From the IMG/VR virus record IMGVR_UViG_3300036768_001066: DNA of 64,000 nucleotides. One strand, given 5' to 3'. This DNA comes from a virus (taxonomy: Duplodnaviria; Heunggongvirae; Uroviricota; Caudoviricetes). The translations under genes were made by a program, and so were the position numbers. Under the pieces are notes generated by a model. That model searched no databases, was not told the origin of the DNA, and saw only the letters and a list, made by a program, of their open reading frames with translations. This document shows positions 9,368-63,717 of the stretch, one piece after another. Every line of letters starts with the position of its first letter. Positions within the stretch are counted from its first letter, which is position 1.

Positions 9368-9377
9368 TATAATAGAG

Positions 9378-9929: not shown

Positions 9930-9934
9930 CTAAT

Positions 9935-10147
9935 ATGAATATAACAGACTACAAGATAGATTCTTCAAGGCTTCGCCGGTACACGGGTGGGTGCGATGAG
10001 CTTTTTGCCGAGCTCGTCACTGAGGCGGTGGAGAAATTTTTACAGATGGGTGACCCGTCTCCGGGAGGACTTGGCGGCGTGTATATGCCGAATATTCAGA
10101 CAATCGAGTTCCTTGTTGATTGCAAGGTGCTCGTCCAAAAAGAATAA
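9935..10147 (+). CDS. hypothetical protein
   Basis: 70-aa ORF. Confidence 0.35.
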   Translation: MNITDYKIDSSRLRRYTGGCDELFAELVTEAVEKFLQMGDPSPGGLGGVYMPNIQTIEFLVDCKVLVQKE

Positions 10148-11771: not shown

Positions 11772-12713
11772 ATGAAAAAACGTTATTGCAAGGCATGCTC
11801 TATGCAGGAGCACGGGGTAAAAACCAGGATAGCCATACCGCACACGTGTGGCAAGGAGCCGCGCCGCATAAAGATGTTCGAGCAGTTCGTGTTCGAATCC
11901 ACTTACAATGTGCTGCACGGTACAAAGTCTCCTAAATTCGATAAGTTCCAGGTCAGTCATGATGAGGCCAACGGGATGTACGGCACAGACTCCCCCGATA
12001 ATGGCATGGGCGTGTTCTTCACCGATAACGATACAATGGCCGAGTTCTTCGCAGGTCTAACGCACTTCGATGCCGACAAGGGCAAATACGTGTCCAAGAG
12101 CGGCAAGGGACGTGTTATGAACGTGACCATCAGTATAGATAAGCCTTACGTCATCGATGACAAACACAAGGACTACGATGCCGATAACGATATGGACTCG
12201 GTGCAGATATATTTTGACGAAATAAAGGATGCTGGCGGTGCCGATAAGTACAGAGCTTCGTTAGAGAAGCGCGGATACGACGGGATAATCCTAAAGAAGT
12301 GCACCACGAATTATTACGGGAAGGGAACTTACACTGTATACGTTGTGTTCGATCCTCGCAATACTAAAATCAACGAGAACAAGTCCAAGATATACTACAA
12401 CCACTGGGACAAGCGTTGGACCATGAAGGAGTTCGTAAAGTATTTCGTGGACGAGCTGGGACTGTTCTCCGAACAGGAGGTTTCTAACTGGTTCGAGAAG
12501 TACGACTTAACCAATGATTCCGAGGTGGTTTGGGTGTCCATGGACAAGATGTCAAACAACACCAAGGGCATGTCTGTTGACCACTATTCTGGCGCCAACG
12601 ATGCGCCGAGTGCCGATATTTCGTCCATATTTGTTGACGGTGAGGATGGGTACGTGATCCCGGAAATTTCCGACGGTGCGAACAGCTGCCTCTTTGTTGT
12701 TAAACAAAAATAG
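11772..12713 (+). CDS. hypothetical protein. Has an internal leader-like motif MFEQFVFES at residue 35, which is an alternative start at 11874.
   Basis: 313-aa ORF. TATATATAAGAT lies directly upstream of 11772. The leader-like motif sits at an internal Met. Confidence 0.5.
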   Translation: MKKRYCKACSMQEHGVKTRIAIPHTCGKEPRRIKMFEQFVFESTYNVLHGTKSPKFDKFQVSHDEANGMYGTDSPDNGMGVFFTDNDTMAEFFAGLTHFDADKGKYVSKSGKGRVMNVTISIDKPYVIDDKHKDYDADNDMDSVQIYFDEIKDAGGADKYRASLEKRGYDGIILKKCTTNYYGKGTYTVYVVFDPRNTKINENKSKIYYNHWDKRWTMKEFVKYFVDELGLFSEQEVSNWFEKYDLTNDSEVVWVSMDKMSNNTKGMSVDHYSGANDAPSADISSIFVDGEDGYVIPEISDGANSCLFVVKQK

Positions 12714-14455: not shown

Positions 14456-16384
14456 ATGGCGGGAATAGCACACTTAAACGAAATCTACAAAAAGAAGGGC
14501 AAAGATTTTCTGGACAAACTATTCGACAGTTATGTCACTATAAACGAAAAGCTCGACGCGAGCGCCTTTGGTGTAGAGAAGAATCCGATCAGCAAGAAGA
14601 TCGAATTCTTCAAGCGCAACACTACAAACCCAATTTCCCAGGTGGACAGGACCCTCGTGCGTTATTACGAGGCACCTATCGAGCATATCAACAGCCTTGG
14701 CGACAAGGTGCTTGCCAAGCTACCCAGTGGATGGAGGTTCGGTATGGAGTACTTCGCCAACTCAAATCCGCAGGAGCTTGTTTATGACAAGCTCCCGAAG
14801 AACGGATTGGTGCTGTCGTACATTCACGTGAAAAACTCGGCCGGCAAGATGGTCCGTACAATCCAGGACAAGGAAGAGCTCGATAAGTGGGCAGACATCC
14901 TGCAGGTGGAGCGCGCGCCGATAATATTCCAGGGCGTTCTCAACGACGACCAGAGGATAAAGATCCTCGACTTCCTCGACACGCCGCAGGCCGAGCTCGA
15001 GAAGAAGTTCAAGACCGAGTCCTTCGTGAAGTACGTAATATCCATTCTGAACCCAAAGATGCGCAGCACGGTCCTGAACAAGGATCTGGAGAAGCCAATA
15101 GAGGGAATAGTGTTTAGGTTCGGCAGCGACGACGATGACGTGGTGCTTGCCAAGATGGTGGACCCGATATTTTCGCAGATGGCGCAGAACAGGGTCAACG
15201 AGACGAACGACACGCCGAACGACATCTATTACATGACGCTCATCGACATAGCCAACTACGTCGAGAACCTAAACCTAAAGAAGTTCAAGCCGAAGGGGCG
15301 TAACTTCGACGACAGGTACATAAACTTCATCTGCGACCTATTCATAAAGTTCATATCCGAAAGGGGGGAGGACTACAAGAACATCAACTTCTCCGAGCCG
15401 GCTTACATGAAGAAAAAGGAGTTCGACCTCAACAGGCAGATGATACCGAACCAGGAGGCGCTCGATCTCATAGACTCGGCGGACTCGTACAAGAAACTGT
15501 TCAAGATAATGCTGGCATCTCTGCGCAAGCACAAGAAGAAGGCAAACAACTTCTTCAGCCAGGAGGTTATCCGCCAGTTCAATGGCACCATAGACAAGAT
15601 AAACAACCACCTATCACAGAACCTAAGGGAGAGCCTCAACGAAAACGACGTGCCATTGTTCGGCGAGTTCATAGCACAGAGGGGCAGGCCCGAAGTTGAG
15701 GACGAGGACGCAGACACCGATGGTGATTCTGTGGATGATTCCGATCCTGAAATGACCGGGCTCAAAAACACTATGGACCTTTTGTCCGCCGATGAGCCGA
15801 AAGAAGAGGAGGACGTCAAGAAGAAATCCAAGAAGAAGGGAAAGAGGGTTAACATAATAGTCGGAAGGTTCCAGCCGTTCCACAACGGGCACGCCGAGAT
15901 GGTGAAGGAACTTAACGAGGCCAACGGCTTGCCCGTCGTAATAGTCGCCGTGCATCCGGGACACAACAAGTCGGGCAACAGCCCGTTCACTATATCCACA
16001 CTGAGGACGATGCTTGGCAACCTGCACAAGGACACCAACGACCTCGTGATCGGCTACAGGATAGTCGGCAGGGGCTTCATACAGGACATCATAGATTCGC
16101 TGAGGCCGGAGTTCGAGCCGATACTGTGGGGCGCGGGTCCTGACAGGATAAACGACTACCGCAAGCAGCTCGAGTTTAACTTCAAGCGCAACAACGAGCT
16201 CGACCTCGACGAGAAGTTCGAGGTGATGGAGACTCGGAGGATCATATCGGGTACCGACGTGCGCAAGCTCGTGGACGAGGACAAGTTCGGCGAGTTCAAG
16301 ACGCACGTGCCAAAGACGGTGCAGGGCTTGTATCCTATACTTAGGAACGACATCCATAATAGCAAAGAACCCGCCAATCAGTAA
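14456..16384 (+). CDS. multidomain protein. N-terminal domain of unknown function with a KLDAS motif (possible ligase-like K-x-D-G variant), an acidic linker, and a C-terminal NMN/NaMN adenylyltransferase domain (NadM/NadR type).
   Basis: The C-terminal region has GRFQPFHNGH (G-x-F-x-P-x-H-x-G-H nucleotidyltransferase signature) and later ISGTDVR. The linker is DEDADTDGDSVDDSDPE. Confidence 0.55.
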   Translation: MAGIAHLNEIYKKKGKDFLDKLFDSYVTINEKLDASAFGVEKNPISKKIEFFKRNTTNPISQVDRTLVRYYEAPIEHINSLGDKVLAKLPSGWRFGMEYFANSNPQELVYDKLPKNGLVLSYIHVKNSAGKMVRTIQDKEELDKWADILQVERAPIIFQGVLNDDQRIKILDFLDTPQAELEKKFKTESFVKYVISILNPKMRSTVLNKDLEKPIEGIVFRFGSDDDDVVLAKMVDPIFSQMAQNRVNETNDTPNDIYYMTLIDIANYVENLNLKKFKPKGRNFDDRYINFICDLFIKFISERGEDYKNINFSEPAYMKKKEFDLNRQMIPNQEALDLIDSADSYKKLFKIMLASLRKHKKKANNFFSQEVIRQFNGTIDKINNHLSQNLRESLNENDVPLFGEFIAQRGRPEVEDEDADTDGDSVDDSDPEMTGLKNTMDLLSADEPKEEEDVKKKSKKKGKRVNIIVGRFQPFHNGHAEMVKELNEANGLPVVIVAVHPGHNKSGNSPFTISTLRTMLGNLHKDTNDLVIGYRIVGRGFIQDIIDSLRPEFEPILWGAGPDRINDYRKQLEFNFKRNNELDLDEKFEVMETRRIISGTDVRKLVDEDKFGEFKTHVPKTVQGLYPILRNDIHNSKEPANQ

Positions 16385-20368: not shown

Positions 20369-21223
20369 ATGAAAAAATTCGGATTATTAGCGATAGCTCT
20401 GAAGATAGGATCAAAGATCCTGAGCATACTCGCAAAAAGCACAAAGTTCGTTCTCGCCGGCGTTTCGTTCGCCGCTTACGCATACATATTCACCTGGCAA
20501 TTTTCCGTGATAATATTGTCCATGCTGATAGTCCACGAGTACGGTCATATCTGGGCTATGCAGCGTTGCGGCATAAAGACCAAGGGCATCTACCTGATAC
20601 CGTTCGTCGGCGGTCTCGCGGTCTCGGACGGCATGGCCAAGTCGAGGTGGGATGAGGTCTACATCGCTATGATGGGGCCCATATTCGGGTTCGCCCTATC
20701 GGTGGTGTCTCTTGTCATATACTGCGCCACCATGGACCCCCTATTTGCCGCGTGCGCATCGTGGATGGCCATGGTCAACATACTTAATCTGTTCCCTGTT
20801 ACCCCACTGGACGGAGGCAGGGTGCTGAAATCAATAACCTTGTCGATAGACAAGCGCGTTGGGTTCGCGTACATGCTGCTTGCGCTGCTTGCCATGCTTG
20901 CGGCCGTCGTGTTTCTCGGCCTGTGGACGTTTGTCGTCCTGATAATAATCGGTGGCCTCGAGCTTTACTTCGAGTACCAGAGCCACAAGATACAGCAGAC
21001 GTTGACCGAACTGGAGAAGCACAAGCCCAACCTGACCGATGAGAGCGCGAAGATCATGGACGAGCTGATAGAGAAGCACCGCGATACTACGGAGAAAATG
21101 GACGGGCGCATGATGATAAAGTCGATGGCGCTTTACCTTTTGGTGCTGGCCGCGCTGTACGTAGTTATGGCGCTGATGAACCACGTGCCCGGCGCAGACA
21201 TAGCAATGCAAATGCTTAAGTAA
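20369..21223 (+). CDS. M50 family site-2 protease (RseP/SpoIVFB-like membrane zinc metalloprotease)
   Basis: HEYGH (HExxH) inside a TM helix. LFPVTPLDGGRV (LDG motif). Multiple TM segments. Confidence 0.6.
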   Translation: MKKFGLLAIALKIGSKILSILAKSTKFVLAGVSFAAYAYIFTWQFSVIILSMLIVHEYGHIWAMQRCGIKTKGIYLIPFVGGLAVSDGMAKSRWDEVYIAMMGPIFGFALSVVSLVIYCATMDPLFAACASWMAMVNILNLFPVTPLDGGRVLKSITLSIDKRVGFAYMLLALLAMLAAVVFLGLWTFVVLIIIGGLELYFEYQSHKIQQTLTELEKHKPNLTDESAKIMDELIEKHRDTTEKMDGRMMIKSMALYLLVLAALYVVMALMNHVPGADIAMQMLK

Positions 21224-26847: not shown

Positions 26848-27684
26848 ATGTCAAAAATGATGATCGATGTTGGAGTGGAGCGTATCTCTCCGCAGTTAGC
26901 CAAGTTGTACTTGGAGAAAAATAAAGAAAACCGTCCATTGAACAACAGAAAGGTTGATGAGTGGCTACAATCAATGAATAAGGGTCTGTGGGAAACTACC
27001 ACTGATGCTATAGGGTTCGACACGAATGGGAACCTAATCAATGGTCAACACCGGTTGACTGCACTTATCAGATACGGAAAACCGCTTGAGTTCCTCGTCG
27101 CCCGTAATTTATCTCCTACCGCTTTCGCCGCAATAGATACCGGTAAATCGAGAAGCGCTGGTGATGTGCTTGGAATTCAGAAATTCAGCAATGCCAATCA
27201 GAAGGCTGGTATCATTCGTGTTTACTGTAACATGAAGAAGAATCGTTTCGTACGTTATCACGATGGCTCAGGTGCCGCGAAAATGAACAACCAAGAGGTT
27301 CTCGAATTTGCGATGCAACACGTCGAACAATTGGATGAGGTTTCTAATCTTGCGGCCAAGGTTAAGAATAAGTTCAAAGCGTGCATACACGCACGATACG
27401 TAGGCGCGCTCTATTGGGTATTCAGCGAATTGCCAGGAAAACAATCTCGTGAACAGGCAATGGAATTTTTCAATATGCTTGCCACCGGAGAGAATCTTAG
27501 CAAGAGTCATCCGGTGTTTGTCCTGCGTAACAGACTTATATCCGAGATGGCCTCACGTAAAAATTCTCCAGACAGTGATATGGTTGCGTGGACGATTATC
27601 ACATGGAACGCGTACAGAAAGGGCAAGCCATTAACCAATATCAGGTACAACCCTAATGAAAGAGATTTCCCTAAACCAATCTAA
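26848..27684 (+). CDS. ParB-like nuclease-domain protein
   Basis: LINGQHRLTAL fits the ParB/Srx-fold motif D/N-G-x-H-R. Confidence 0.5.
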   Translation: MSKMMIDVGVERISPQLAKLYLEKNKENRPLNNRKVDEWLQSMNKGLWETTTDAIGFDTNGNLINGQHRLTALIRYGKPLEFLVARNLSPTAFAAIDTGKSRSAGDVLGIQKFSNANQKAGIIRVYCNMKKNRFVRYHDGSGAAKMNNQEVLEFAMQHVEQLDEVSNLAAKVKNKFKACIHARYVGALYWVFSELPGKQSREQAMEFFNMLATGENLSKSHPVFVLRNRLISEMASRKNSPDSDMVAWTIITWNAYRKGKPLTNIRYNPNERDFPKPI

Positions 27685-28095: not shown

Positions 28096-28932
28096 ATGAC
28101 TAAAAGAATAGACACCAAAGAGAGGAACAAGCAGATTGCGGCCCGTTATGCGGAGCTCGTGTCTGTCGATGTGTCGCCGGACGATGCTATTCAGAAAATC
28201 TCTGATGAACAGGAGATTGGCAAATTTTACGTACGCAGCATTCTCCGAGCTATTGGGGTGCGCATAGGCCGCAAGGGACAGTATGACCGCAAGGGCAACC
28301 TGTCGGACAGGGATCGCCAGATCATCGAGCTTGCCGAGAAGGGCGAGACGCCGGAGGACATTGGCAGCCGCTTTGAGATAACCCCAACGAGGGTCCGTCA
28401 GGTTGTGCGTGACAATGTCACTGATTTGAAACACGTACGCATTGAACGTACGCTGTCCGAGATAAAGAACGAAGTCGCCAACTACCAGGAGATGATAAAG
28501 TCCAACGAGAACATGAAGTCCGAGGAAAACCCGGGCGGCATCGACCGAACATGGAAAACCTGGTACCGCGGCATCACATCCAAGTACGGAGAGAAAACTA
28601 TGAGGGAGATAAAATCCAACCTCGGGTACAATCTGTTCAAGGAGTCGCAGAGATACCGCGACGAGAACATCGTGCAGATGGGCAAGATCGGCGGATTCTC
28701 GGCACAGTACACGGCAGACAAGCACGGACTGTGCAAGGATTACGTGTACAGCATCTGGCACAGCAATGGTGTGCACAAGGACAAGAAGAAGAAACTCACA
28801 CCCAAGGAGCGCCAGCAGCGAGACGCCAAGATTCGTGAAGCGTGTAAAACAAAGAAGATAGGCGAGGTCGCCAAGGATTTCGGTCTGTCGTATACAATGG
28901 TGAAACTAATAAATTCAGATAATGTCCGGTAA
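28096..28932 (+). CDS. putative transcriptional regulator with sigma-70 region-4-like helix-turn-helix motifs
   Basis: LSDRDRQIIELAEKGETPEDIGSRFEITPTRVRQVV resembles sigma region 4 / LuxR HTH. A second HTH-like IGEVAKDFGLSYTMVKLI. Confidence 0.45.
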   Translation: MTKRIDTKERNKQIAARYAELVSVDVSPDDAIQKISDEQEIGKFYVRSILRAIGVRIGRKGQYDRKGNLSDRDRQIIELAEKGETPEDIGSRFEITPTRVRQVVRDNVTDLKHVRIERTLSEIKNEVANYQEMIKSNENMKSEENPGGIDRTWKTWYRGITSKYGEKTMREIKSNLGYNLFKESQRYRDENIVQMGKIGGFSAQYTADKHGLCKDYVYSIWHSNGVHKDKKKKLTPKERQQRDAKIREACKTKKIGEVAKDFGLSYTMVKLINSDNVR

Positions 28933-37300: not shown

Positions 37301-37708
37301 GTGAAAACATCCCCCTACAATCTATTACAGGAGATTTACCGATCGGACGACTGGAAGATTTTCGTTTGCTGTATGATGCTTAACCAAACTACCAGGCAGC
37401 AAGTGGACCGGGTTCGGCACGAATTCTTCCGTAGGTGGCCGAACGCCAGGAAGGCCATGTCTGCCGATCCATTGGAAATGGCAGAGCTGATAAAGCCGCT
37501 GGGATTCTCAAACAAACGCAGCACAGGGATAATAAAGATGAGCGCGGACTACATAGAGAAGGAATGGCGCGAACCGAAGGACTTGTACGGACTCGGTCAA
37601 TACGCACAGGACTCATACGACATATTCATCCGAAAGCGACTCGACCTGAAGAACCCGGCCGATAAATTCCTCAGCAAATACATGGAATGGGCCAGGTGCA
37701 GGTTGTAA
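37301..37708 (+). CDS. MBD4-like HhH-GPD DNA glycosylase (mismatch-specific thymine/uracil glycosylase domain); GTG start
   Basis: [27 protein letters not shown] resembles human MBD4 [55 protein letters not shown] resembles [43 protein letters not shown] resembles LHGIGKYGNDSYRIF, including the catalytic Asp. Confidence 0.7.
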   Translation: [135 protein letters not shown]

Positions 37709-37767: not shown

Positions 37768-38369
37768 ATGGAAAACTATCGTAAGTACATTTTCTGGGGG
37801 TAATCGGGTTCGTCCTGTTCTTCACAGGTTGCAGTAGCTATGTAAGCTACAACAACATGGTATCAATGGAAGAAACCGTAACGGCTAAGTGGTCACAGGT
37901 TGAGAACGTATACCAGCGGAGGTCGGACCTCATTCCGAACTTGGTTAACACTGTCAAGACAGAAGCCAACTTTGAAAAATCAACGCTCGAAGCGGTGATT
38001 CAAGCGCGTGCAAGCGCCACGCAAGTTAAGATTGATCCTACAAACCTGACACCGGAATCCATGAAGGCATTCGAGGCGGCACAAGGTCAACTTGGCACAA
38101 CTCTATCTCGCTTGTTGGTGACGATGGAGCAGTATCCGAACCTCAAATCCAATGAGGCGTTCAACCAGCTGATGTCGCAGCTCGAGGGCACGGAGAACCG
38201 CATAACCGTAGAGCGCCGCGAGTTCAACATCGCTGTGCAGGACTACAACAAGTACATCAGAAGGTTCCCAAAAAATGTGTGGGCCGGCATGTTCGGATTT
38301 CAGACCAAGGCGTACTTCCAGGCAGACAAGGGAGCAGAAAAAACACCAACCGTAAACTTTGACAAATAA
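37768..38369 (+). CDS. LemA-family lipoprotein. The reading frame is broken at a G5 homopolymer (37796-37800): the N-terminal signal/lipobox segment and the LemA body are in different frames.
   Basis: MENYRKYIFWG, then in the next frame VIGFVLFFTGC (lipobox FTGC) SSYV...WSQVENVYQRRSDLIPNLV (LemA signature). Adding one G joins them perfectly. Confidence 0.5.
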
Positions 38370-39090: not shown

Positions 39091-39582
39091 ATGTCACTAT
39101 ATTATTTCGCATACGGAAGCAACATGAACCCCGACCGCATGACTGCGAGAGGCGTGGCGTTCGAGTCGTTCGAGTACGGGCACTTGCACCACTACAGATT
39201 ACGGAGCAACAAGATGTCGCAGAAGTACAGGACGCTCGCGTTCGTCAACATCGAGCCGTGCTTCGAGTCGAGTGTGTTCGGCGTGCTGTACACGTTGCCG
39301 TCGACCGCCCAGCTGGAGGAACTGGACAAGAAGGAGGGCTACCCTAACCACTACGAGAAGTGCTTCGTACCGGTGCATACCAAAGAGGGTATGAAGCTCG
39401 CGCTCGTTTACGTGGCTACCCGCAACTGGGCGAGCGAGAACGACCTGCCGATGCCGTCGGAATATAAGGCGCTCATGAATTCCGGATTGGACAAGTGCGA
39501 GGATCTGGTCATCGAGGACAAACAACTATACGAGGCGTTCTTACACTACAAGGAGAAGACACAAGAAATGACAATGATATGA
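39091..39582 (+). CDS. gamma-glutamyl cyclotransferase-like (AIG2/GGCT fold) protein
   Basis: N-terminal YYFAYGSNMNP (YGSNL signature of the GGCT/AIG2 family). Confidence 0.65.
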   Translation: MSLYYFAYGSNMNPDRMTARGVAFESFEYGHLHHYRLRSNKMSQKYRTLAFVNIEPCFESSVFGVLYTLPSTAQLEELDKKEGYPNHYEKCFVPVHTKEGMKLALVYVATRNWASENDLPMPSEYKALMNSGLDKCEDLVIEDKQLYEAFLHYKEKTQEMTMI

Positions 39583-39825: not shown

Positions 39826-40638
39826 ATGCCCGACCAACAATACAGAATTCGCCGGCAAGTTCAACGCGTCATAGGTGTTTATACGTTTTTACTCAACCTG
39901 CTATACGTCAACAGTAAGTACTACCATGTTCAGATCCCGGCGAGCATGCACTCGCTAATAGGTATAGTCATCGGCTTGCTGCTCGTTTTCAGGACGAACA
40001 CCGCGTACGACCGCTGGTGGGAGGGACGCAGGCTCTTCAGCGCGCTGTCGACCTCAATATCTTACTTCTCAATAAAATTGAACTCGTGCTGCACCGACGT
40101 CCTCGTGAAGACGCAGGCCCGTAACATCATAAAGCAGATACTGCGCAACCTGTCCGACTACCTGCGAGAGACGAACGCCGATAACGTCATGGGACATCAT
40201 AATAAGCAGACCAAGTTCGTTTGCGATATGTTGTTACTCATACGCGACGCCAAGTTGTCTGACAGGGACCTCAACATTCTCGAGGACAAACTAAATGAGA
40301 TAGTTGACATATCCAACTCGTTCGAGCGTATCAAGAGCACGCCGATACCGAAGGCGTACGCCCTGCACATAAAGGCATCGATATTCATATACCTGCTGAG
40401 CCTGCCATTCGGGTTGTTTCACGACCTCGGACTCTGGGCCGCAGCGATGGTCATGGTCATATTCTACATAGTCGCCGGCATCGAGATAATAAGCAACGAG
40501 ATAGAGGACCCATTCGCGGACGATCCGAACGACCTGCCGATAGACACGTACTTCAAGCAGATAAAGGACTCTATGAACATAATCAAGGAGAGCGTGAACT
40601 CGGAGTACGGGAAGTACGGAAAGGAGACCCTGAAATGA
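39826..40638 (+). CDS. bestrophin/UPF0187-family membrane channel homolog
   Basis: RTNTAYDRWWEGRRL matches the bestrophin-family RxxxAYxRWWEAR signature. Several TM helices. Confidence 0.6.
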   Translation: MPDQQYRIRRQVQRVIGVYTFLLNLLYVNSKYYHVQIPASMHSLIGIVIGLLLVFRTNTAYDRWWEGRRLFSALSTSISYFSIKLNSCCTDVLVKTQARNIIKQILRNLSDYLRETNADNVMGHHNKQTKFVCDMLLLIRDAKLSDRDLNILEDKLNEIVDISNSFERIKSTPIPKAYALHIKASIFIYLLSLPFGLFHDLGLWAAAMVMVIFYIVAGIEIISNEIEDPFADDPNDLPIDTYFKQIKDSMNIIKESVNSEYGKYGKETLK

Positions 40639-41289: not shown

Positions 41290-43278
41290 ATGAATACAAA
41301 CCTGCAACTACAAGAGAACTACGTGTTCCTCCTCGAGCGTGCTGAGAGCAACCTCGTGGTAGAGGCTACGGGTAGCAATCCGAAAGACTACATTCTCGAA
41401 GGTATCGCCGCTATCATGGGCGAGGAGAATAACAACCACAGGATTTACGAGGCAAAGGAGTATCTTCCGCACCTCGAGTACCTAAACAAGAAGATTCAGC
41501 AGAAGCGCCTGGTCGGAGAGCTCGACCACCCAGAGAAGTTTGACGTTTCCCTCAAGAACATATCCCACATAGTTGAGAAGCTCGAGTACAACGAGAAGGA
41601 CAGGACCCTCAGGATTCGCGTGCGCTTGCTCGACACTCCACACGGACAGATTGCCAAGACATTAGTAGACGCCGGATACCCGCTGTCTATTTCTTCGCGT
41701 GCTGCCGGTTCTGTTATGGAGAACAAGAAGGTTAAGATCAAAAAGATATTCACATACGACCTCGTCGCAGACCCTGGTTTCGAAAAGGCACAGCTTGATA
41801 GGATTTACGAGAGCGCGAACTTTGATGCGGGCACTAAAAAGTCCGTTATTTCAGAGCTTACGGACATCTCGGAGAGCTTTGCGCCAGAATTTTCCGCACA
41901 CACGAAGATATATAGTGTAGATCCGAACAATGCGGCGTTTAAGAAGGCGATGCTGGATGAGGACAAAAAAACCAACAACGACATGAATCAATTCGTAACA
42001 TCTGAAGAGCTCAACGATTGGTCCGCTGCATTCCGTACCGGAATCATGAAGGAGATTGAAAATGTTAAGTCGAAGGTTACCGAGTCTACTGATGCTGAAA
42101 TTATCAAGACCCTTCTTGAAAAAATCGAGAAGCACGAGAGGTACATGAAGTATCTCGCAGGCAACCTTGATAAGAACATTCAGTACACTGAGTACGTGGC
42201 TGAGAACCTCGACAAGAACATCGAGTATTCTAAGTACCTCGCAGAGAACCTCGACCGTAACATTTCTTACAGCGAGTACCTCGCAGAGAACCTCGACCGT
42301 AACATTTCTTACAGCGAGTACCTCGCAGAGAACCTCGACCGCGGTATTTCGTTTATGGACTACCTCGCAGAGAACCTCGAGAAGAACATCAACTACAGCG
42401 AGTACCTCGCAGAGAACCTCGACAAGAACATTTCTTATTCCGAGTACCTCGCAGAGAACCTCGACAAGAACATTTCTTATTCCGAGTACCTCGCAGAGAA
42501 CCTCGACAAGAACATTTCTTATTCCGAGTACCTCGCAGAGAACCTCGACAGGGGAATCGGATATTCTGAGTATTTGGCAGAAAAAATCGAGAATAACATC
42601 GCTTATTCCGAATATATAGCTGAAAACGTCGTTGCTGCGGCCCCAGCGGTTACCGCAATGCCAGCAGCTACGAACAATAGTTCTGCACCGATAGCCAAGG
42701 TTAACGAGAGCGTAGCTGAGGCGAACAAATACACTGGTTTGTCCGCACAGATAAACCAACTGCTGGAGGCCGCTACTAAACAGAAAGCCGCCACCAAAAT
42801 GAACGAGAGCCAGTACCACTTCTTCCGCTTCCTAAGCGAAGCTAAGAGGAACGAGTTCGAAGCCCTCGAGGAGGCCAAGAAAGAAAAGGTCGCAAACGCC
42901 CTGAAACCAGGTGCGTACTTTTCAGAAGCTGACGTAACCAAAATTTGGGAAGCAGCTTTGATTGAGAAGCAGGATGACACTCCGAAGTTCCTGCAAATGA
43001 TTCCGGAGTCGATTAAGCCGCTCTACGAGGCGCTTACCGAATCCGAAAAGCAAGGCATACTTGCACAGAGCAAATTGATGAACCTCGACACCGAGTACAA
43101 AATCAAGAACTTCTGGACAAGCAGGCCATTTGTAAGGGGCAAGGTTGTTGGACTTGTAAAACTCAACGAAAATGAAACGGCAGTTCCAGCGAACACCGAT
43201 AAAACCAAGACACTCGGCTACGGCACAGAGTACATGGACAAAATCGCGTCACAACTCGGACAACGTTTTAAAAAGTAA
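41290..43278 (+). CDS. prohead protease (T4 gp21-like, N-terminal) fused to a scaffold/core domain containing about 11.5 tandem 14-aa repeats (YSEYLAENLDKNIS)
   Basis: N-terminus GIAAIMGEENNNHRIYEAKEY...GELDHPE resembles the gp21/U35-type prohead protease signature (GxxG..N.NgRiY). The helical acidic repeat array is encoded by a 42-bp periodicity at 42151-42630. The gene lies immediately upstream of the major capsid gene. Confidence 0.6.
   Translation: MNTNLQLQENYVFLLERAESNLVVEATGSNPKDYILEGIAAIMGEENNNHRIYEAKEYLPHLEYLNKKIQQKRLVGELDHPEKFDVSLKNISHIVEKLEYNEKDRTLRIRVRLLDTPHGQIAKTLVDAGYPLSISSRAAGSVMENKKVKIKKIFTYDLVADPGFEKAQLDRIYESANFDAGTKKSVISELTDISESFAPEFSAHTKIYSVDPNNAAFKKAMLDEDKKTNNDMNQFVTSEELNDWSAAFRTGIMKEIENVKSKVTESTDAEIIKTLLEKIEKHERYMKYLAGNLDKNIQYTEYVAENLDKNIEYSKYLAENLDRNISYSEYLAENLDRNISYSEYLAENLDRGISFMDYLAENLEKNINYSEYLAENLDKNISYSEYLAENLDKNISYSEYLAENLDKNISYSEYLAENLDRGIGYSEYLAEKIENNIAYSEYIAENVVAAAPAVTAMPAATNNSSAPIAKVNESVAEANKYTGLSAQINQLLEAATKQKAATKMNESQYHFFRFLSEAKRNEFEALEEAKKEKVANALKPGAYFSEADVTKIWEAALIEKQDDTPKFLQMIPESIKPLYEALTESEKQGILAQSKLMNLDTEYKIKNFWTSRPFVRGKVVGLVKLNENETAVPANTDKTKTLGYGTEYMDKIASQLGQRFKK
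42151..42630 (+). repeat. coding tandem repeat, 42-bp unit repeated about 11.4 times, inside the protease-scaffold gene
   Basis: Near-identical units tacctcgcagagaacctcgacaagaacatttcttattccgag. Confidence 0.8.
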
Positions 43279-43296: not shown

Positions 43297-44811
43297 ATGA
43301 AAATGATCAACGAACAAGAGGTTTTTGAAACTTGGTCTCCGGTTATCAACGAGAAGACTAATATCAAAGACTCGAACAAAGTAGAATGGCTTTCTAAGTA
43401 CTGCCACTACCACTCGCTCAATGAGTCTGCTATCCACGCTGGATACGGCACTCTCGACGCGCTTAACGGTATGGGCCAGCCTTTGGCTCCGACCAGGTCC
43501 GCTAACGGTTCCGGCGACAAGTTCCCTTCACTTCTTCCGCTCGCTATCCAGGTAGCAGCTAAGACTGTAGGTTTCGACATCGTTCCGGTTATCCCGATGC
43601 CAGGCCCAACAGGTGTTCTCACCTACCTCGATTACGTTTACGCAGGTGGACGTATCGACAACGCTGACCATAAGCCACTCCTGATCAAGTTCAACGCGAC
43701 AGGTACGTGGACTAACGGTACATCGTACACCGCAACTTCAGGTGCTGGTACCCTTGCCCTTACCTTCGTTGGTAAGTCGAGGATCGACGGTTACCCAATC
43801 TTCAAGGTTGGTGCATCTACTCCGTCTACCATCTCTGTAGCTCAGGTTATTGGTGTGGTTGGCGCGACAGTAACAACTGACGCAGCTCCGGTTGCAGCTA
43901 CTAACGCTGCTGCCCTCGTAGCAATGCTCGAAGATCACATCCAAGGTTTCGCTGGTGCAGGTGACACTGACACAGCTAACTGGACCGGTCCTTACGCAGA
44001 TGCTAACGACTCTGGTCCAATGACCCGTGAAGTTGGTGAGTCTACCTACTACAGGACGACTAACCTCAAGACTTTCACCAAGTTCGTTGAGACTGAGACC
44101 TACCAGCTTGCTGCGCAGGTAACTACTGAGCAGATACAAGACCTTAACAAGCAGTTCGGTATCGACGTTGTGTCGATGGTTGAGAACTCGCTCGTTAACG
44201 ATGTATCACAGCACATCAACAAACACATCCTCGTGACCGCATTCGGTCTTGGTACGCAGAACGCTACTGAGTTCGCTGCAACTGAAGGACAGGTGCTCGA
44301 CCTCAACCTTACGGCTCTGCCTACGGTTGGTACGTACGAGAACCTCCAGACGTTCCAGAGGAGAATCTTCAGCCGCATACTTGCTGCCGCTAACGTAGTA
44401 GCAAACCGTGGTCGTCGTGGACCTGCGAACTTCGTTGTATGTAACTCTCAGATTGCTACGGCGATCCAGGACATCAGCCAGTTCCAGCCAGCTCCGTTCG
44501 CGAACACCGCAAGCCAGAACAACGGTGCTCTCTACCCAGTAGGATCACTCGCTGGTATGACTGTGTACGTTGACCAGAACATGAAGTGGACTGACACTCG
44601 CGTACTTGTCGGCCGTAAGGGCGCAGACGACGAGCCAGGTCTGAAGTTCATGCCGTACATGATGGCTGAGTCTATCCAGACAATCTCTGAAGGCACTATG
44701 TCTCCGAAGATCGCTGTGAAGTCTCGCTACGCCCTCGTGTCAGCTGGATTCCACCCACAGACAATGTACTTCACTTTCACGATCCAGGTGCCTACCTCAG
44801 GTATCATCTAA
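43297..44811 (+). CDS. major capsid protein, T4 gp23-like (HK97 fold)
   Basis: FDIVPVIPMPGPTGVLTYLDYVYAGG resembles the conserved gp23 core block (V..V.PM..P.G.i.YL). 504 aa. Preceded by the protease-scaffold gene and followed by a strong terminator. Confidence 0.75.
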   Translation: MKMINEQEVFETWSPVINEKTNIKDSNKVEWLSKYCHYHSLNESAIHAGYGTLDALNGMGQPLAPTRSANGSGDKFPSLLPLAIQVAAKTVGFDIVPVIPMPGPTGVLTYLDYVYAGGRIDNADHKPLLIKFNATGTWTNGTSYTATSGAGTLALTFVGKSRIDGYPIFKVGASTPSTISVAQVIGVVGATVTTDAAPVAATNAAALVAMLEDHIQGFAGAGDTDTANWTGPYADANDSGPMTREVGESTYYRTTNLKTFTKFVETETYQLAAQVTTEQIQDLNKQFGIDVVSMVENSLVNDVSQHINKHILVTAFGLGTQNATEFAATEGQVLDLNLTALPTVGTYENLQTFQRRIFSRILAAANVVANRGRRGPANFVVCNSQIATAIQDISQFQPAPFANTASQNNGALYPVGSLAGMTVYVDQNMKWTDTRVLVGRKGADDEPGLKFMPYMMAESIQTISEGTMSPKIAVKSRYALVSAGFHPQTMYFTFTIQVPTSGII

Positions 44812-47416: not shown

Positions 47417-47530
47417 TTTCTTCGTTTTCGAGGTGAAGGTGGTCGTAGATGATCTGTCGAGCAGGACAAGGCCGTCGACCGCCTTCGTTGCCTCGCGTAT
47501 CTCATCCATCAAGTCGTCCGGCCCGCCCAT
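47417..47530 (-). CDS. small hypothetical protein (37 aa)
   Basis: MGGPDDLMDEIREATKAVDGLVLLDRSSTTTFTSKTKK. TAATG overlap with the clpP stop. Confidence 0.25.
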
Positions 47531-48219
47531 TACTTCTTAGCAGAAGGGTCAGCTATAAGAATCTCATCGATCATTCCGTACTCCTTGGCTTGGCCGGATG
47601 TCATCCAGTAGTCACGGTCCGAGTCGGTCCACACCTTGTCGTACGTCTGACCCGAGTGGTTCGCGATTATCTCGTACAGTTCCTTCTTGAGAATCTGGAT
47701 CTCTCTGGCGGTGATCTCGATGTCCGAAGCCTGCCCCTCGGCGCCTCCGAGCGGCTGGTGTATCATTATCCTCGAGTGCTTTAGTGCCGAGCGCTTGCCC
47801 CTGGCACCTGCACACATAAGTACCGCTCCCATGGATGCTGCCATCCCGGTGCAGATGGTCGCTACGTCGGGCGTGATGTACTGCATGGTGTCGTATATTC
47901 CGAGACCCGCGTATACGCTGCCGCCTGGTGAGTTGATGTAAATTTGGATGTCCTTCTTTCCGTCGAGCGACTGCAGGAAGAGGAGCTGCGCCTGTATGAT
48001 GTTCGCGACCTCGTCGTATATCCCCGTTCCGAGGAAGATGATGCGGTCCATCATGAGACGCGAGAACACGTCCATCTCTGCCACGTTGAGCTGACGCTCC
48101 TCGATGATGTACGGTGTTATGCTGCTGTTGATGCCGTGCTTCGTGTAGGAATCAAACGTGTTTGAACTGATGCCCCTGTGTTTGACGGCATACTTTCTGA
48201 ATTCGTCTCTATTGTTCAT
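47530..48219 (-). CDS. clpP: ATP-dependent Clp protease proteolytic subunit ClpP
   Basis: INSPGGSVYAGLGIYDTM. TICTGMAASMGAVL (catalytic Ser). IMIHQPLGG (catalytic His). 229 aa. Confidence 0.85.
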   Translation of the reverse strand: MNNRDEFRKYAVKHRGISSNTFDSYTKHGINSSITPYIIEERQLNVAEMDVFSRLMMDRIIFLGTGIYDEVANIIQAQLLFLQSLDGKKDIQIYINSPGGSVYAGLGIYDTMQYITPDVATICTGMAASMGAVLMCAGARGKRSALKHSRIMIHQPLGGAEGQASDIEITAREIQILKKELYEIIANHSGQTYDKVWTDSDRDYWMTSGQAKEYGMIDEILIADPSAKK

Positions 48220-57527: not shown

Positions 57528-58415
57528 ATGACAATGAAAACCGTAAAACTTTTTACTCAGTCACAGTGGGAAACATTCGAGTACGATAAACTCAGCGACA
57601 TCTCCGCTGAGTTCAAAAAGCGCGGCATTAGCATCGGCCAGCGCGTGAGCATCGGCGAAGGCGCGAGCATCGGCGAAGGCGCGAGCATCGGCGAAGGCGC
57701 GAGCATCGGCGAAGGCGCGAGCATCGGCGAAGGCGCGAGCATCGGCGAAGGCGCGAGCATCGGCGAAGGCGCGAGCATCGCCCCCCGCGCGAGCATCGGA
57801 TGGGGCGCGAGCATCGCCCCCCGCGCGATCATCGGCGAAGGCGCAAGCATCGACCCCCGCACGAACATCGGCGAAGGCGCGAGCATCGGCGAAGGCGCGA
57901 GCATCGGCGAAGGCGCGAGCATCGGCGAAGGCGCGAGCATCGCCCCCCGCGCGATCATCGGCCGGGGCACGAACATCGGCGAAGGCGCGAGCATCGGCGA
58001 AGGCGCGAGCATCGGCCCACGCGCGAGCATCGGCGAAGGCGCGAGCATCGGCCCACGCGCGAGCATCGGCGAAGGCGCGAGCATCGGCCCCCGCGCGAAC
58101 GTCGGATGGGGCGCGATCATCGGCGACGGCGCGATCATCGGCCCCCGCGCGAACATCGGCCGGGGCGCGATCATCGAGGAATGCGTTATCGTGCGCTCTC
58201 TCAGCTTCAACGGCTCAAGACATCACGTGTCATATTGGGGCTCAGATGAGATTCAAATCGGCTGCATGAAATACTCTATAAAATATTGGCAAAATAACCT
58301 CAAGAGCGTCGGTGAAACCGAAGATTACAGCGCAGAAGAGATCGCGGAGTATGGCAACTACATCGAGTTGATTGCAAATTTGCATGAGAAAAACGCGCTG
58401 TCTCACATCGGATGA
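57528..58415 (+). CDS. hexapeptide-repeat (left-handed beta-helix-type) protein with the leader MTMKTVKLFTQSQWE
   Basis: About 28 consecutive I-G-E-G-A-S hexapeptides, encoded by an 18-bp tandem array. Non-repetitive C-terminal domain. Confidence 0.55.
   Translation: MTMKTVKLFTQSQWETFEYDKLSDISAEFKKRGISIGQRVSIGEGASIGEGASIGEGASIGEGASIGEGASIGEGASIGEGASIAPRASIGWGASIAPRAIIGEGASIDPRTNIGEGASIGEGASIGEGASIGEGASIAPRAIIGRGTNIGEGASIGEGASIGPRASIGEGASIGPRASIGEGASIGPRANVGWGAIIGDGAIIGPRANIGRGAIIEECVIVRSLSFNGSRHHVSYWGSDEIQIGCMKYSIKYWQNNLKSVGETEDYSAEEIAEYGNYIELIANLHEKNALSHIG
57650..58190 (+). repeat. 18-bp coding tandem repeat array (ggcgaaggcgcgagcatc and variants), about 30 copies
   Basis: Directly visible periodicity. 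It creates spurious antisense and shifted-frame ORFs in the six-frame track. Confidence 0.85.
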
Positions 58416-58663
58416 AATCGGTAAAACTTTTTACTCAGTCACGGTGGGAAACATTCGAGTACGATAAACTCAGCGACATCTCCGCTGAGTTCAAAAAGCG
58501 TGGCATTAGCATCGGCCAGCGCGCGAGCATCGGATGGGACGCGAGCATCGGCCCCCGCGCGAACATCGGCGAAGGCGCGAGCATCGGCGAAGGCGCGAAA
58601 ATCGGTCGGTGCGCGAGCATCCGCCAGCGCGCGAGCATCGACGATGGCGCGATCATAAAGTAA
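58412..58663 (+). CDS. truncated paralog of the hexapeptide-repeat gene (same leader, 5 repeats, no C-terminal domain)
   Basis: N-terminal 40 aa are near-identical to 57528 (MKSVKLFTQSRWETFEYDKLSDISAEFKKRGISIGQR). Confidence 0.4.
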   Translation: MKSVKLFTQSRWETFEYDKLSDISAEFKKRGISIGQRASIGWDASIGPRANIGEGASIGEGAKIGRCASIRQRASIDDGAIIK

Positions 58664-59069: not shown

Positions 59070-61088
59070 ATGGCAAAAAGTTTATTCGACACAGAGGACA
59101 CGTTCATTGGCATCACCGATGCCAGTTTCGAATCTCGTCTAAAGAAGATGAGTCTCAAAGAAAAAGAAACCCTGTACCTTAAGGCTAAGGACCGCTACTA
59201 CAGCGGAGACCCTATCATGTCAGACCCGCAATTTGACAGGCTGGAGTTGTGGTTGGAGTCTGAAGATTCCAAAGTCACACAGAAGGTCGGTGGCGCCGAC
59301 GGCGACCGCGACAAGCTCATACACCCGCACATGAGTCCGATGCTTTCTCTTGAGAAGATTCAGGTTAACGATGAGGATAACTTCCCTTTGGCGGAGATCC
59401 AATCGTGGAACGCGACACACACGTATCCGCTCGAGGCAACTCCCAAATTCGATGGTAACGCAATTGAGCTTCAGTACCGTGGCGGAAAGCTTAAGCTGGC
59501 GATAACACGAGGAGAACACGGCAAGGGAGGTGACGTCACAAAGAAGCTGCTCACCATGGGTATCCCAGAGCAGCTCCCGGTCGACAAGGACATCGAGATA
59601 CGCGGAGAGGTCTGTATGCCGATGACCATTTTCAAAAACAAATACCAGAAGGATTTTAAGAACCCGCGCAACCTGGTTGCCGGCATATTGAATCCCAACA
59701 ACGATAAGGACGAGCGCTCGTCAGATTGCGCGTTCGTGGCGTACTCTGTGAAGGTACACCAGAACGGAAGAGTACACTACGTGGAAGACGCAATGGCAAA
59801 CCTCGAGCGCTTCGGCTTCAACAAGGACTATCCGGTTCGCGTTGAGACAATCCAGAACGCGCAGGATTACCGTAGAGTGTACGACATATTCAAGCATTAC
59901 CGCGAGGTGCAGTCTCCGTTCCAGCTTGACGGTATCGTATTCAAGACCCCTGAGAACAAGCGCGCTGCTATTGGGGAGAACAGCCGTCATCCAAAATGGG
60001 CGATTGCATTGAAGTTCCCTGCCAAAGAGGTTACCACAAAAATCATTTCACACGTTTGGGAAGTTGGTTATACCGGCGAGCTGAGCCCAGTTGGCATACT
60101 CGAGCCGGTTGATCTTGACGGTTCCGAGATTACGAGAGTTTCGTTGTACAACAAGTCGCGTATTATCGCGAGCGGTACGTTCCCGGGCGCGGTGGTTACC
60201 ATCCGCAAGGCCGGTGACATCATCCCGCAAATTATCAAAATAGTTCAGCCGTCTCCGGATAGCGCCAAATATATCCGCGACAAGAACTTCTTCCCTACGT
60301 GTTGCCCCGCTTGCGGAGGCAACATCGATGTTGAGGTTTACTCTACGAACAAAAAAAATGATGCGCCCACCGAGCACTTGATGTGCAACAACCCCGATTG
60401 CTCCGGTAAACTCACTCGCAAACTTTCTCTTGGTATATCCGCGTTGAAAGTTAAAGGGATCGGCGATTCCACTTGCGAGGGCCTCATCAAGTCCGGCGTT
60501 AAGACCATCTTCGACGTTTTCGATGCCACCAAATTCAACACTCAGGCATTATGTAAGGCCGGAGTATTCAAGCCTGGACGTCAGCTCGAGCTTGTCCTGA
60601 ACGCTATAAAGGCCATCAAACAGGTTGACCTTGACAAAGCGATTCTCGCACTACAATTTGATGGCCTCGGCGATACAGGGTCAAAGGCGGTTGCAGACCT
60701 CGTTGCCGGTCGCATACAGAATTTCGACAACATGGGATTGGAGAAGGCGGTTGTGGACCCGTTCTTAAATGCCAACTCTTGGCAGTCCCAGTCCATAAAG
60801 TCTTTCCTCGGAGTTTTAAAGGATAACGGCATCACAGTTAATATGCCGAAGCAGATTGCCGCAGGCGCTATCGTATTCGAGATGACTGGAAGCCCGGAAA
60901 GCGCCGGATACAAGACGAAGGAGGAGTTTGTTAATTACGTCGCACGTTACGGGTATGTGCACGGCAAGCTGGCCAAAGCGTCTCTGCTTATTACCGATTC
61001 GTATACTTCTAAAACCTCTAAGATGAAGGACGCAGAGAAGAAGGGCATCAAGATTATGACGTACGAGGACCTAATCAATTCACTGTAA
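59070..61088 (+). CDS. ligA: NAD+-dependent DNA ligase LigA (adenylation domain, OB fold, Cys4 zinc finger, HhH, C-terminal BRCT)
   Basis: KxDG adenylation motif ATPKFDGNAIELQ. Zinc finger CPACGG...CNNPDC. C-terminal BRCT-like GKLAKASLLITDSYTSKTSKMKDAEKKGIKIMTYEDL. 672 aa. Confidence 0.85.
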   Translation: MAKSLFDTEDTFIGITDASFESRLKKMSLKEKETLYLKAKDRYYSGDPIMSDPQFDRLELWLESEDSKVTQKVGGADGDRDKLIHPHMSPMLSLEKIQVNDEDNFPLAEIQSWNATHTYPLEATPKFDGNAIELQYRGGKLKLAITRGEHGKGGDVTKKLLTMGIPEQLPVDKDIEIRGEVCMPMTIFKNKYQKDFKNPRNLVAGILNPNNDKDERSSDCAFVAYSVKVHQNGRVHYVEDAMANLERFGFNKDYPVRVETIQNAQDYRRVYDIFKHYREVQSPFQLDGIVFKTPENKRAAIGENSRHPKWAIALKFPAKEVTTKIISHVWEVGYTGELSPVGILEPVDLDGSEITRVSLYNKSRIIASGTFPGAVVTIRKAGDIIPQIIKIVQPSPDSAKYIRDKNFFPTCCPACGGNIDVEVYSTNKKNDAPTEHLMCNNPDCSGKLTRKLSLGISALKVKGIGDSTCEGLIKSGVKTIFDVFDATKFNTQALCKAGVFKPGRQLELVLNAIKAIKQVDLDKAILALQFDGLGDTGSKAVADLVAGRIQNFDNMGLEKAVVDPFLNANSWQSQSIKSFLGVLKDNGITVNMPKQIAAGAIVFEMTGSPESAGYKTKEEFVNYVARYGYVHGKLAKASLLITDSYTSKTSKMKDAEKKGIKIMTYEDLINSL

Positions 61089-62994: not shown

Positions 62995-63717
62995 ATGAAA
63001 TATATGAGAATTAAAGAGAATTACAACGGAAGGAAAATTCCACTCAATGAGGTTCTGTCCAAGGTAACGCCAGACACCCCAAAATTCACGTCCGCCTGGT
63101 TCGACGGCGCGGAGGTTAACATCGGTATGCTTAATGTGAGGCTGTACGCGGCCAAGGGATGCGACTGCGTCCATTGCGAACTCAAGGGCGCATTCTTCCG
63201 CATAGAGAGGATGGGCAAGGGCAACTCCATATTCAACGAGTGGCACCTCAATCTCTACGGCGTAAATGAGTACGGGACCGAGATACTTATGACAAAGGAC
63301 CACATACATGCTCGGTCTAAGGGCGGCAGCGACGAGATAGAGAACTTACAGCCTATGTGCGAGATATGCAACGTCAAGAAGAAGGACATGCCTATGCACG
63401 AGTTCCAAGCTAAGCATGGTGGACCCGCACCGAGCAAATACGACAGATATTTCGAAAAGGTGTCAAAGAGATTGCAAGAGAGATACGGGCTAAGCATAAC
63501 CAAGGAGCAGTTCGGTCACCTGCAGAAGACCGTGCGCAACGCACGGGTGATAAAGGACGTGGGATGCGGTAACAGCATCCGCGAGATGAAGTTGAACGGC
63601 CGCAGCATCAAGGTGTTCTACCACGGCACGCAGCGCTGCATAATTAGCGCCATGGAGGACAAGGACGACCAGTGGTTCCACGAACAGATGGTGCCCAATT
63701 TCGCAAAGAACGACTAG
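62995..63717 (+). CDS. HNH homing-type endonuclease
   Basis: CVHCEL...LMTKDHIHARSKGGSDEIENLQPMCEICNVKK is the classic HNH block DHIHPxSxGG...NLQ..C..CN. Confidence 0.65.
   Translation: MKYMRIKENYNGRKIPLNEVLSKVTPDTPKFTSAWFDGAEVNIGMLNVRLYAAKGCDCVHCELKGAFFRIERMGKGNSIFNEWHLNLYGVNEYGTEILMTKDHIHARSKGGSDEIENLQPMCEICNVKKKDMPMHEFQAKHGGPAPSKYDRYFEKVSKRLQERYGLSITKEQFGHLQKTVRNARVIKDVGCGNSIREMKLNGRSIKVFYHGTQRCIISAMEDKDDQWFHEQMVPNFAKND

Follow-up and report, generated by a model that had tools for sequence, protein, structure and literature searches.

The closest described relative of the protein considered here is the glycosylase domain of mammalian MBD4 (MED1), for which several structures are available (1NGN, 3IHO, 4EVV, 4EW0, 4EW4, and 4E9E). 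The protein is encoded in a stretch of 64,000 nucleotides from a virus of the Caudoviricetes (IMG/VR record IMGVR_UViG_3300036768_001066), and this whole stretch is referred to below as the window. Over 129 gapless residues, the two are approximately 40% identical, and they have in common an all-helical HhH-GPD fold, a glutamine and a tyrosine that read the base, a catalytic aspartate, a tyrosine where other enzymes carry a lysine nucleophile, and the lack of an iron–sulfur cluster. Unlike MBD4, the window protein is encoded by a phage and stands alone, with neither the methyl-CpG-binding domain nor the linker (HhH-GPD is the only Pfam domain), and a CpG context is not expected. Lacking a methyl-CpG-binding domain, it does not qualify as full-length MBD4.

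Other members of the HhH-GPD superfamily are more remote. Mig.MthI (1KEA) is also a glycosylase of T or U opposite G, yet its relation to the window protein, like that of MutY and endonuclease III (EndoIII), is marginal (sequence E-values of 0.02–0.9). These enzymes have approximately 220 residues and a 4Fe-4S cluster loop; since the window protein has no iron–sulfur cluster, it is not of the EndoIII, MutY, or Mig type. The Mig gene lies beside a C5 cytosine methyltransferase gene on a plasmid. In Escherichia coli, the gene for Vsr, a T:G-specific enzyme of very-short-patch repair, overlaps the gene for the cytosine methyltransferase Dcm, whose product creates the lesion. The likeness of the phage family to this pair is functional: at the loci L004–L006, the stop of a methyltransferase gene (9151–10011) overlaps the start of the glycosylase gene downstream by 11 bases. 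However, Vsr is an endonuclease of unrelated fold, and the methyltransferase linked to the phage gene is of the FkbM type (PF05050).

Among cultured phages, the same stand-alone subfamily is represented by QNN97216.1 of Xanthomonas phage Xp12 and seven homologs, which are annotated as hypothetical, ENDO3c domain protein, or endonuclease III. The Xp12 protein shares the signatures LxQE, LNxT, PLG, GxGxY, and PxDxxL with the window protein. It differs in being only about 30% identical, in carrying an N-terminal extension of about 25 residues, and in its setting, a siphovirus operon with a dCMP methylase, whereas the window gene lies beside a family-B DNA polymerase (PolB). Our literature searches found no paper describing a phage MBD4-type glycosylase; one apparent match proved to be merely a protein accession beginning with MBD4.

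Fold, family membership, and active site

The initial annotation had described a 136-residue protein at 37301–37708 that aligns residue by residue with the MBD4 glycosylase domain. The coordinates hold, while the product is one residue shorter (135 codons plus a stop). The best match in the PDB (phmmer) was the mouse MBD4 glycosylase domain 4EW4 (E = 6.5e-29), with residues 3–131 lying on chain residues 8–136 without a gap, and all four motif pairs quoted earlier are present in this alignment. Mouse and human MBD4 chains gave E-values from 6.5e-29 to 7e-26; the next family, represented by the archaeal T:G glycosylase Mig.MthI (1KEA), gave 0.02. On this measure, the resemblance to MBD4 is far beyond chance. 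The profile comparison that had been proposed as a check returned the Pfam HhH-GPD family (PF00730) at 36 bits, where the gathering threshold is 26.2 (E = 9.4e-9). An AlphaFold2 model built from 35 homologs had a mean predicted local distance difference test score of 95.4. In Foldseek comparisons, it superimposed on 16 MBD4 structures with template modeling (TM) scores of 0.91–0.94 and root-mean-square deviations of 1.0–1.4 Å, compared with TM scores of 0.67 for 1KEA and at most 0.69 for MutY and EndoIII. Sequence and profile matches, the predicted structure, and the conserved residues thus all bear out the proposal of an MBD4-like HhH-GPD glycosylase in a phage, and the window is clearly phage DNA.

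The roles of individual residues were taken from mouse MBD4–DNA structures (PMC3458566) and transferred through the gapless alignment, with the numbering anchored by the D534N chain 4EVV (HPENHKL). The gene and the segments that bear on its activity are as follows:

37301..37708, plus strand: coding sequence of the stand-alone MBD4-type HhH-GPD DNA glycosylase, 135 aa, GTG start, TAA stop
37322..37333, plus strand: codons for L8-L9-Q10-E11 (in SPYNLLQE), equivalent to mouse L421-V422-Q423
37379..37390, plus strand: codons for L27-N28-Q29-T30 (in MLNQT), equivalent to mouse L440-N441-R442-T443
37499..37507, plus strand: codons for L67-G68-F69 (in PLGF), equivalent to mouse L480-G481-L482
37574..37627, plus strand: helix-hairpin-helix segment by alignment, residues 92–109, including Y101 (mouse Y514)
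37661..37663, plus strand: codon for D121, the catalytic aspartate (mouse D534, human D560; in NPADKFL), by alignment and conservation

In mouse MBD4, L421, V422, and Q423 stack on the flipped thymine or uracil and form hydrogen bonds with its O2, N3, and O4 (PMC3458566). The equivalent Q10 is conserved in the close family (a column of at least 70%), invariant or nearly so in diverse short sets, and a glutamine in 43 of 46 short sequences. The helix-hairpin-helix is formed around L95-G97-L98-G99 and Y101, and the model has helices at 100–110 and 122–134. Mouse Y514 takes the position that a lysine nucleophile holds in bifunctional enzymes and serves to activate the leaving base, and the Y514F change nearly abolishes activity (PMC3458566); its counterpart Y101 was invariant in 149 representatives of 50%-identity clusters. 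The catalytic aspartate of MBD4 is mouse D534 or human D560, in HPEDHKL, and the D534N enzyme is inactive (PMC3458566). The residue that aligns with it, 20 positions past Y101, is D121, and every one of the 149 representatives with a residue in this column has aspartate, which is also nearly invariant in the close family. The aspartate singled out as catalytic in the initial annotation, in AQDSYDIF, is instead D104, the equivalent of mouse D517. The enzyme has therefore not lost its catalytic aspartate, although a different residue has to be assigned to the role.

Some contact residues of the mouse enzyme are replaced. In the mouse structures (PMC3458566), L440 stacks, N441 contacts the minor groove, and R442 is the finger that enters the helix and occupies the space vacated by the flipped base. 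L27, N28, and T30 are invariant across the family, but the finger position is a glutamine rather than an arginine in the window protein, and Q, C, L, I, or R in phage homologs. The same position also varies in long eukaryote-type homologs (34 K, 27 R, and 22 Q), and Gln29 is for this reason not a sign of inactivity; the arginine finger is accordingly no strict hallmark of the family. The second replacement is F123 for mouse K536, a residue that sits over the flipped base (PMC3458566) and whose equivalent is variable among phage homologs. Because of these two replacements, the kinetics and substrate range may differ from those of MBD4. At the wedge, where the carbonyl of mouse L480 touches the orphan guanine and L482 intercalates (PMC3458566), the window protein has Phe69 in place of leucine.

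Q10, Y101, L8, and L27, which correspond to mouse Q423, Y514, L421, and L440, are all conserved across the family. By every criterion that could be tested bar the arginine finger, the window protein belongs to the MBD4 glycosylase-domain subfamily. We consider its identity as an MBD4-type glycosylase highly probable. There is no lysine at the nucleophile position, and the enzyme is therefore predicted to be monofunctional. The 135 residues of the protein include no cysteine-rich loop (the only cysteines are C23, C24, and C133), and it is predicted to be free of an iron–sulfur cluster, like MBD4.

Genes called separately on a Logan contig with an identical glycosylase gene included the same 135-residue product, which supports the start of the gene. 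A longer reading from a TTG at 37211 is possible but has no support; the close homologs all begin at the same M-K start region in the alignment, equivalent to the GTG, and the upstream TTG is consequently not needed.

Relatives in other phages and their link to cytosine modification

When the window protein was compared by tblastn with 50,697 phage records, 17 matched: those of Xp12 and related phages, Janthinobacterium phage Donnerlittchen, one cyanophage, and one archaeal virus, as well as a fragment. In Xp12, all cytosine is replaced by 5-methylcytosine (5mC) (PMC7653180, PMC13229309). Its homolog (QNN97216.1; MT664984.1 46973–47455), annotated as hypothetical, has MBD4 as its best solved relative (E = 5e-14; EndoIII, 5e-4). 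The gene is the first of a run that continues with a PRA-PH/MazG-like NTP pyrophosphohydrolase, a “thymidylate synthase,” a dCMP deaminase, and dihydrofolate reductase. In the thymidylate synthase (TS) of E. coli, ThyA, a change from asparagine to aspartate at position 177 switches specificity from dUMP to dCMP. The Xp12 TS-like protein has aspartate at this position (GLPYDV), a residue that fits with the known dCMP methyltransferase of Xp12. Among cultured phages, homologs of the Xp12 type are confined to eight, all of them Xp12-like, and each of the eight carries an Xp12-type TS-like gene approximately 1.7 kb from the homolog.

A second linkage was found in phages closer to that of the window. 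L054 is a 260-kb T4-like contig whose capsid protein is 51–54% identical to that of the window and whose glycosylase is 53% identical. The glycosylase gene is followed by genes for a DUF6378 protein, a 361-residue protein, a TS-like enzyme (1.4 kb downstream), and a DUF707 protein. The best solved relative of this TS-like enzyme is the dCMP hydroxymethylase of T4 (E = 1.8e-18, compared with 2.7e-9 for the best thymidylate synthase), and it has aspartate at the specificity position. Its three closest IMG/VR relatives (62–64% identity) have a glycosylase gene at the same offset, with approximately 52–54% identity to their best query sequences. At locus L073, a hydroxymethylase-like gene likewise lies within 10 kb of the glycosylase. 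Altogether, a nearby TS-like enzyme with aspartate at the position of ThyA N177 is present in Xp12, L054, L073, L094, L095, and L103. BLAST found no similarity between the DUF6378 protein of L054 and the pyrophosphohydrolase of Xp12.

A role in genomes containing 5-hydroxymethylcytosine (5hmC) is chemically sensible because MBD4 excises 5-hydroxymethyluracil (5hmU) opposite G faster than T opposite G (PMC3458566). Of the three roles put forward in the initial annotation, the repair of deaminated bases in the phage’s own modified DNA is the one favored by this comparative context, that is, by Xp12 and the L054 lineage.

To survey the neighbors of the family more broadly, open reading frames within 6 kb were clustered for 90 loci, which fell into 44 groups at 85% glycosylase identity. 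The commonest immediate neighbor was the FkbM-type methyltransferase, directly upstream in 16 of the 44 groups (as in L041, at 8504–9319), and no solved relative of this methyltransferase was found. The arrangement may be likened to that of dcm and vsr, although the methyltransferase is not a recognized DNA C5-methyltransferase.

The family is widespread in viral and metagenomic sequence. A word-seeded search recovered 37 close relatives of the window glycosylase, all metagenomic. An exhaustive HMMER search over 1.84 billion cluster representatives gave 1,920 clusters at E ≤ 1e-3, 1,085 of them at E ≤ 1e-10. The best 150 of these clusters were a mixture of stand-alone proteins of about 135–200 residues and long proteins with the domain at the C-terminus; among the latter, one had a chromo domain and the remainder had no other Pfam domain, as in eukaryotic MBD4/MBD4L. 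At least 562 viral contigs in IMG/VR encode a relative, and wherever genomic contexts were read they were phage-like (T4 baseplate, ribonucleotide reductase, NAMPT, lysins, PolB, and capsid). The window protein and its Xp12 and L054 homologs are all without a family in PHROGs v4. By comparison, two GTDB scans of 185,579 prokaryotic species, with one genome each, gave a single match, on a 6.4-kb contig of an archaeal metagenome-assembled genome. As the query peptides were characteristic of the phage clade, distant bacterial relatives would have escaped these scans, which exclude only close relatives.

In a neighbor-joining tree of 224 domain sequences, eukaryote-type and viral sequences fell mostly into separate clades, and the ancestral order was not resolved. 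The overall distribution (many phages, nearly no prokaryotic genomes, and otherwise multidomain proteins of eukaryotic type) fits, but does not prove, an origin of the domain in phages. A bolder reading would hold that stand-alone MBD4-type glycosylases are a phage invention for maintaining genomes with C5-modified cytosine, and that the domain of eukaryotic MBD4/MBD4L was acquired from such phages. We think this unlikely as matters stand. If true, it would parallel the phage or bacterial origins proposed for TET/JBP and DNA methyltransferases, and the distribution across phages and eukaryotes in any case bears on the origin of the eukaryotic methylation-repair toolkit.

A proposed role in the repair of phage DNA and competing explanations

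We propose that the window gene encodes an active, monofunctional, mismatch-specific MBD4-type glycosylase for T or U, and probably 5hmU, which most likely repairs deaminated cytosine derivatives in phage DNA. We assign this reading a probability of roughly 0.6. The enzyme would be made by the phage during replication. It would undo the hydrolytic deamination of cytosine derivatives in phage DNA (5mC to T, 5hmC to 5hmU, and C to U). On the model of its homolog MBD4, the helix-hairpin-helix would bind the minor groove, Phe69 would act as a wedge in the opposite strand, and the G-paired pyrimidine would be flipped out, with Gln29 filling the gap. The Watson–Crick edge of T or U would be read by Gln10 and Tyr101 together with the main chain of residue 9, a reading that would exclude cytosines, and Asp121 would cleave the glycosidic bond. 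A host apurinic/apyrimidinic endonuclease would then cut the abasic site, polymerase would refill it from the phage nucleotide pool, and a ligase, perhaps the NAD-dependent one of the phage, would seal it, a short-patch repair that would restore the (modified) cytosine. Because ordinary uracil-DNA glycosylase is inactive on T or 5hmU, such repair would matter most where cytosine carries a C5 substituent.

Phages with 5mC or 5hmC genomes face a little-noticed problem in this respect, as deamination gives T or 5hmU, which uracil-DNA glycosylase spares. A phage glycosylase for T or 5hmU opposite G that is co-inherited with modification genes would be the counterpart of Dcm–Vsr and of mammalian MBD4/TDG. 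In metagenomes, the gene could serve as a marker of phages with C5-modified DNA. Its small size (135 residues) and independence from any cofactor could also make the enzyme useful in mismatch and methylation-sequencing chemistry.

For a sign of modification in the phage itself, palindrome counts in the window were scored against a maximal-order Markov expectation. Several palindromes are nearly absent, and there is no avoidance of GC-rich palindromes in the window:

CTAG: observed 1, expected 77
GATATC: observed 0, expected 16
CATATG: observed 0, expected 11
ATGCAT: observed 0, expected 8.5
ATTAAT: observed 0, expected 7.6
TTATAA: observed 1, expected 9.2

The palindromes were then compared with published measurements of how 227 enzymes cut 5hmC-containing DNA (Flodman et al. 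2020, Table S1). Of six 6-bp palindromes that are fully cleavable in 5hmC DNA, four are purged, compared with one of 47 that are resistant (Fisher test, about 2.5e-4; about 0.011 when restricted to sites with at most two G/C). Such a pattern is expected if cytosine modification blocks most enzymes and leaves selection to those insensitive to it; we take it as a hint and not as proof.

Several observations weigh against the repair of modified cytosine as the role of the enzyme in this phage. The check for cytosine-modification enzymes that had been suggested earlier came back negative, with no TS-like enzyme, DNA methyltransferase, TET/JBP protein, or glucosyltransferase in the 64-kb window or in the approximately 10 kb past its right end (L010). 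Since no cytosine-modifying gene was found there, modified cytosine in this phage, and a repair role directed at it, are things we infer. The neighbors of the glycosylase gene in the window are replication genes and not nucleotide-modification genes. Among cultured phages, too, the association is partial: the glycosylase occurs in just eight of about 26 cultured phages with an Xp12-type TS-like gene, leaving about 18 that do without it, and it must therefore be accessory, and dispensable even there. The site-avoidance argument is confounded by AT content and lets commercial enzymes stand in for those of the host, and CTAG and ATGCAT are purged as well, though BfaI and NsiI are blocked by 5hmC. 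At the active site, the arginine finger and Lys536 of MBD4 have given way to Gln29 and Phe123. As to a separate candidate for a modification module, the ParB-like protein at 26848–27684 was considered as part of a 5-methylpyrimidine dioxygenase module (like that in PMC13229309) and was rejected, as its neighbors are a sigma/helix-turn-helix regulator and a genuine NAD synthetase.

Some of these same observations could be accommodated by a general antimutator. In a phage genome with ordinary cytosine, it would remove U or T that comes to lie opposite G through cytosine deamination or polymerase error, supplementing or replacing host Ung/Mug while a very large genome is copied rapidly. A fidelity factor would be expected where the gene is found, amid PolB, dUTPase, and replication genes, and it would need no modification genes nearby, of which there are none in the window and the sequence just beyond; most of the 44 locus groups, too, have no TS-like gene within 10 kb. 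Strong purging of restriction sites is typical of phages with unprotected DNA, yet the sites purged here are biased to those cleavable in C5-modified DNA. Hosts already provide a uracil-DNA glycosylase, and a general role would not account for the repeated, independent linkage in other lineages to genes for dCMP methylase or hydroxymethylase and for methyltransferases. On balance, we regard an antimutator as the chief rival, though a rather unlikely one. The view that the protein is a catalytically dead or purely DNA-binding remnant can draw on the loss of the MBD4 arginine finger and Lys536. However, the finger is equally variable in eukaryote-type homologs, the reading frame is intact with a confident, compact fold, and the catalytic aspartate, Tyr101, and Gln10 are kept in essentially all of hundreds of diverged homologs, which makes a dead enzyme scarcely credible.

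Two further explanations would give the enzyme a part in conflict. It might start U:G repair against host DNA cytosine deaminases or other deamination-based immunity. U:G is indeed the best substrate of MBD4 (kobs of 1.7 per min, compared with 0.45 for T:G; PMC3458566), and the window holds other possible anti-defense genes (NAD synthetase and an ADP-ribosyltransferase domain). However, if deamination were dense, excision would break up the DNA instead of saving it. Uracil is in any case already removed by host Ung, and the turnover of MBD4 is very slow, about once per 4 h without added salt (PMC3458566). With no pointer to such a function in the gene neighborhoods, the earlier suggestion that the enzyme counters deaminase defense found nothing in its support, and we hold it to be improbable. 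Alternatively, the enzyme could be offensive or serve in exclusion, excising bases from host DNA or from the pyrimidine-modified DNA of a competitor phage, much as defense glycosylases of hosts attack modified phage DNA. The recruitment of DNA glycosylases for conflict has happened repeatedly (bioRxiv 10.1101/2025.10.29.685425), and the variable residue at the K536 position of phage homologs could tune the pocket. Against this, the residues that restrict MBD4 to T or U opposite G are conserved and correctly paired bases are not MBD4 substrates, while the gene travels with the phage’s own nucleotide-modification operons and not with nucleases or toxins. We consider an offensive role very improbable, and nothing was found to favor the related idea, also raised at the outset, that the enzyme acts on host 5mC:G. 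Repair of deaminated cytosine derivatives in phage DNA thus remains the reading that we prefer.

The phage and the surroundings of the gene

The window belongs to a T4-like phage, probably a jumbo phage with a genome of more than 200 kb, and no cultured phage is similar to it at the DNA level. Its recognizable structural and replication genes include the following:

6617–7651: gp32-like single-strand-binding protein
10154–11710: helicase
about 34009–34449: dUTPase
34901–36328: exonuclease/N-terminal part of a split PolB
41290–43278: gp21-type prohead protease fused to a repeat-rich scaffold
43297–44811: gp23-like major capsid protein
47530–48219, minus strand: ClpP
59070–61088: NAD-dependent DNA ligase
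L010 13526–14767: C-terminal part of PolB, beyond the right end of the window and about 30 kb from the first part

The glycosylase gene lies within the replication module, near PolB and dUTPase. The gene order of sigma-like regulator, dUTPase, PolB, DUF4494, and glycosylase is repeated in a 482-kb IMG/VR contig (L011), and part of it is also found in a 114-kb contig (L003). A Logan contig identified through the rightmost protein of the window runs on for approximately 10 kb past the right end and encodes topoisomerase II, RNase HII, and the remaining part of PolB. Exact sequences of the window ends had no match in IMG/VR or in the JGI metagenome contigs, and a look-up of the leftmost protein returned nothing, while SRR11727984 contains contigs identical to parts of the window. 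Homing-endonuclease-like genes are present near the split PolB (NUMOD3, 33259–33996, minus strand; HNH, 62995–63717).

Upstream, the glycosylase gene is bordered by a short divergent region:

37221..37300: divergent intergenic region, 80 bp, with a small minus-strand gene (37017–37220) on one side and the glycosylase start on the other

The promoter of the gene presumably lies here. The assignment is positional only, because sigma-70-like matches are no commoner in this region than in shuffled sequence; scans for sigma-70-like promoters and for terminators around the gene were at chance level. Inspection of the sequence ahead of the GTG revealed no Shine–Dalgarno motif, and such motifs precede just 18 of the 70 window genes of at least 100 aa, a low frequency that hints at a host relying little on Shine–Dalgarno pairing. 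A Bacteroidota host was considered and dropped: the −7 motif TAnnTTTG occurs twice upstream of the glycosylase, and 23 times in the window where 26.6 are expected.

Directly downstream is a LemA-like gene (37768–38369) that appears to be interrupted by a frameshift in a stretch of five G (37795–37799). One frame encodes MENYRKYIFWG, and another a signal- or lipobox-like VIGFVLFFTGCSS... and the LemA domain. One additional G would fuse the two frames, and the Logan contig has the identical sequence there.

The window holds other genes that are uncommon in phages. An 804-residue protein (30830–33244) has a major vault protein shoulder domain (PF11978), unusual for a phage, and is kept in L003 at 61% identity. 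Genes of cellular type are also present for a bestrophin-like channel (39826–40638), a gamma-glutamyl cyclotransferase-like protein (39091–39582), an M50 membrane protease (20369–21223), and the ClpP listed above. A cluster related to NAD comprises the NAD synthetase (28922–29839; E = 2e-49), a fusion of RNA-ligase-like and cytidylyltransferase-like (NMNAT-like) domains (14456–16384), and an ART-PolyVal ADP-ribosyltransferase domain (11772–12713), in addition to the NAD-dependent ligase. Repeats mark two more regions. The prohead protease (S77) gene runs into about 10 tandem 14-residue units of YSEYLAENLD(K/R)NIS, and a hexapeptide-repeat protein with many GEGASI/GPRASI units (57528–58415) is followed by a short paralog with the same N-terminus (58412–58663).

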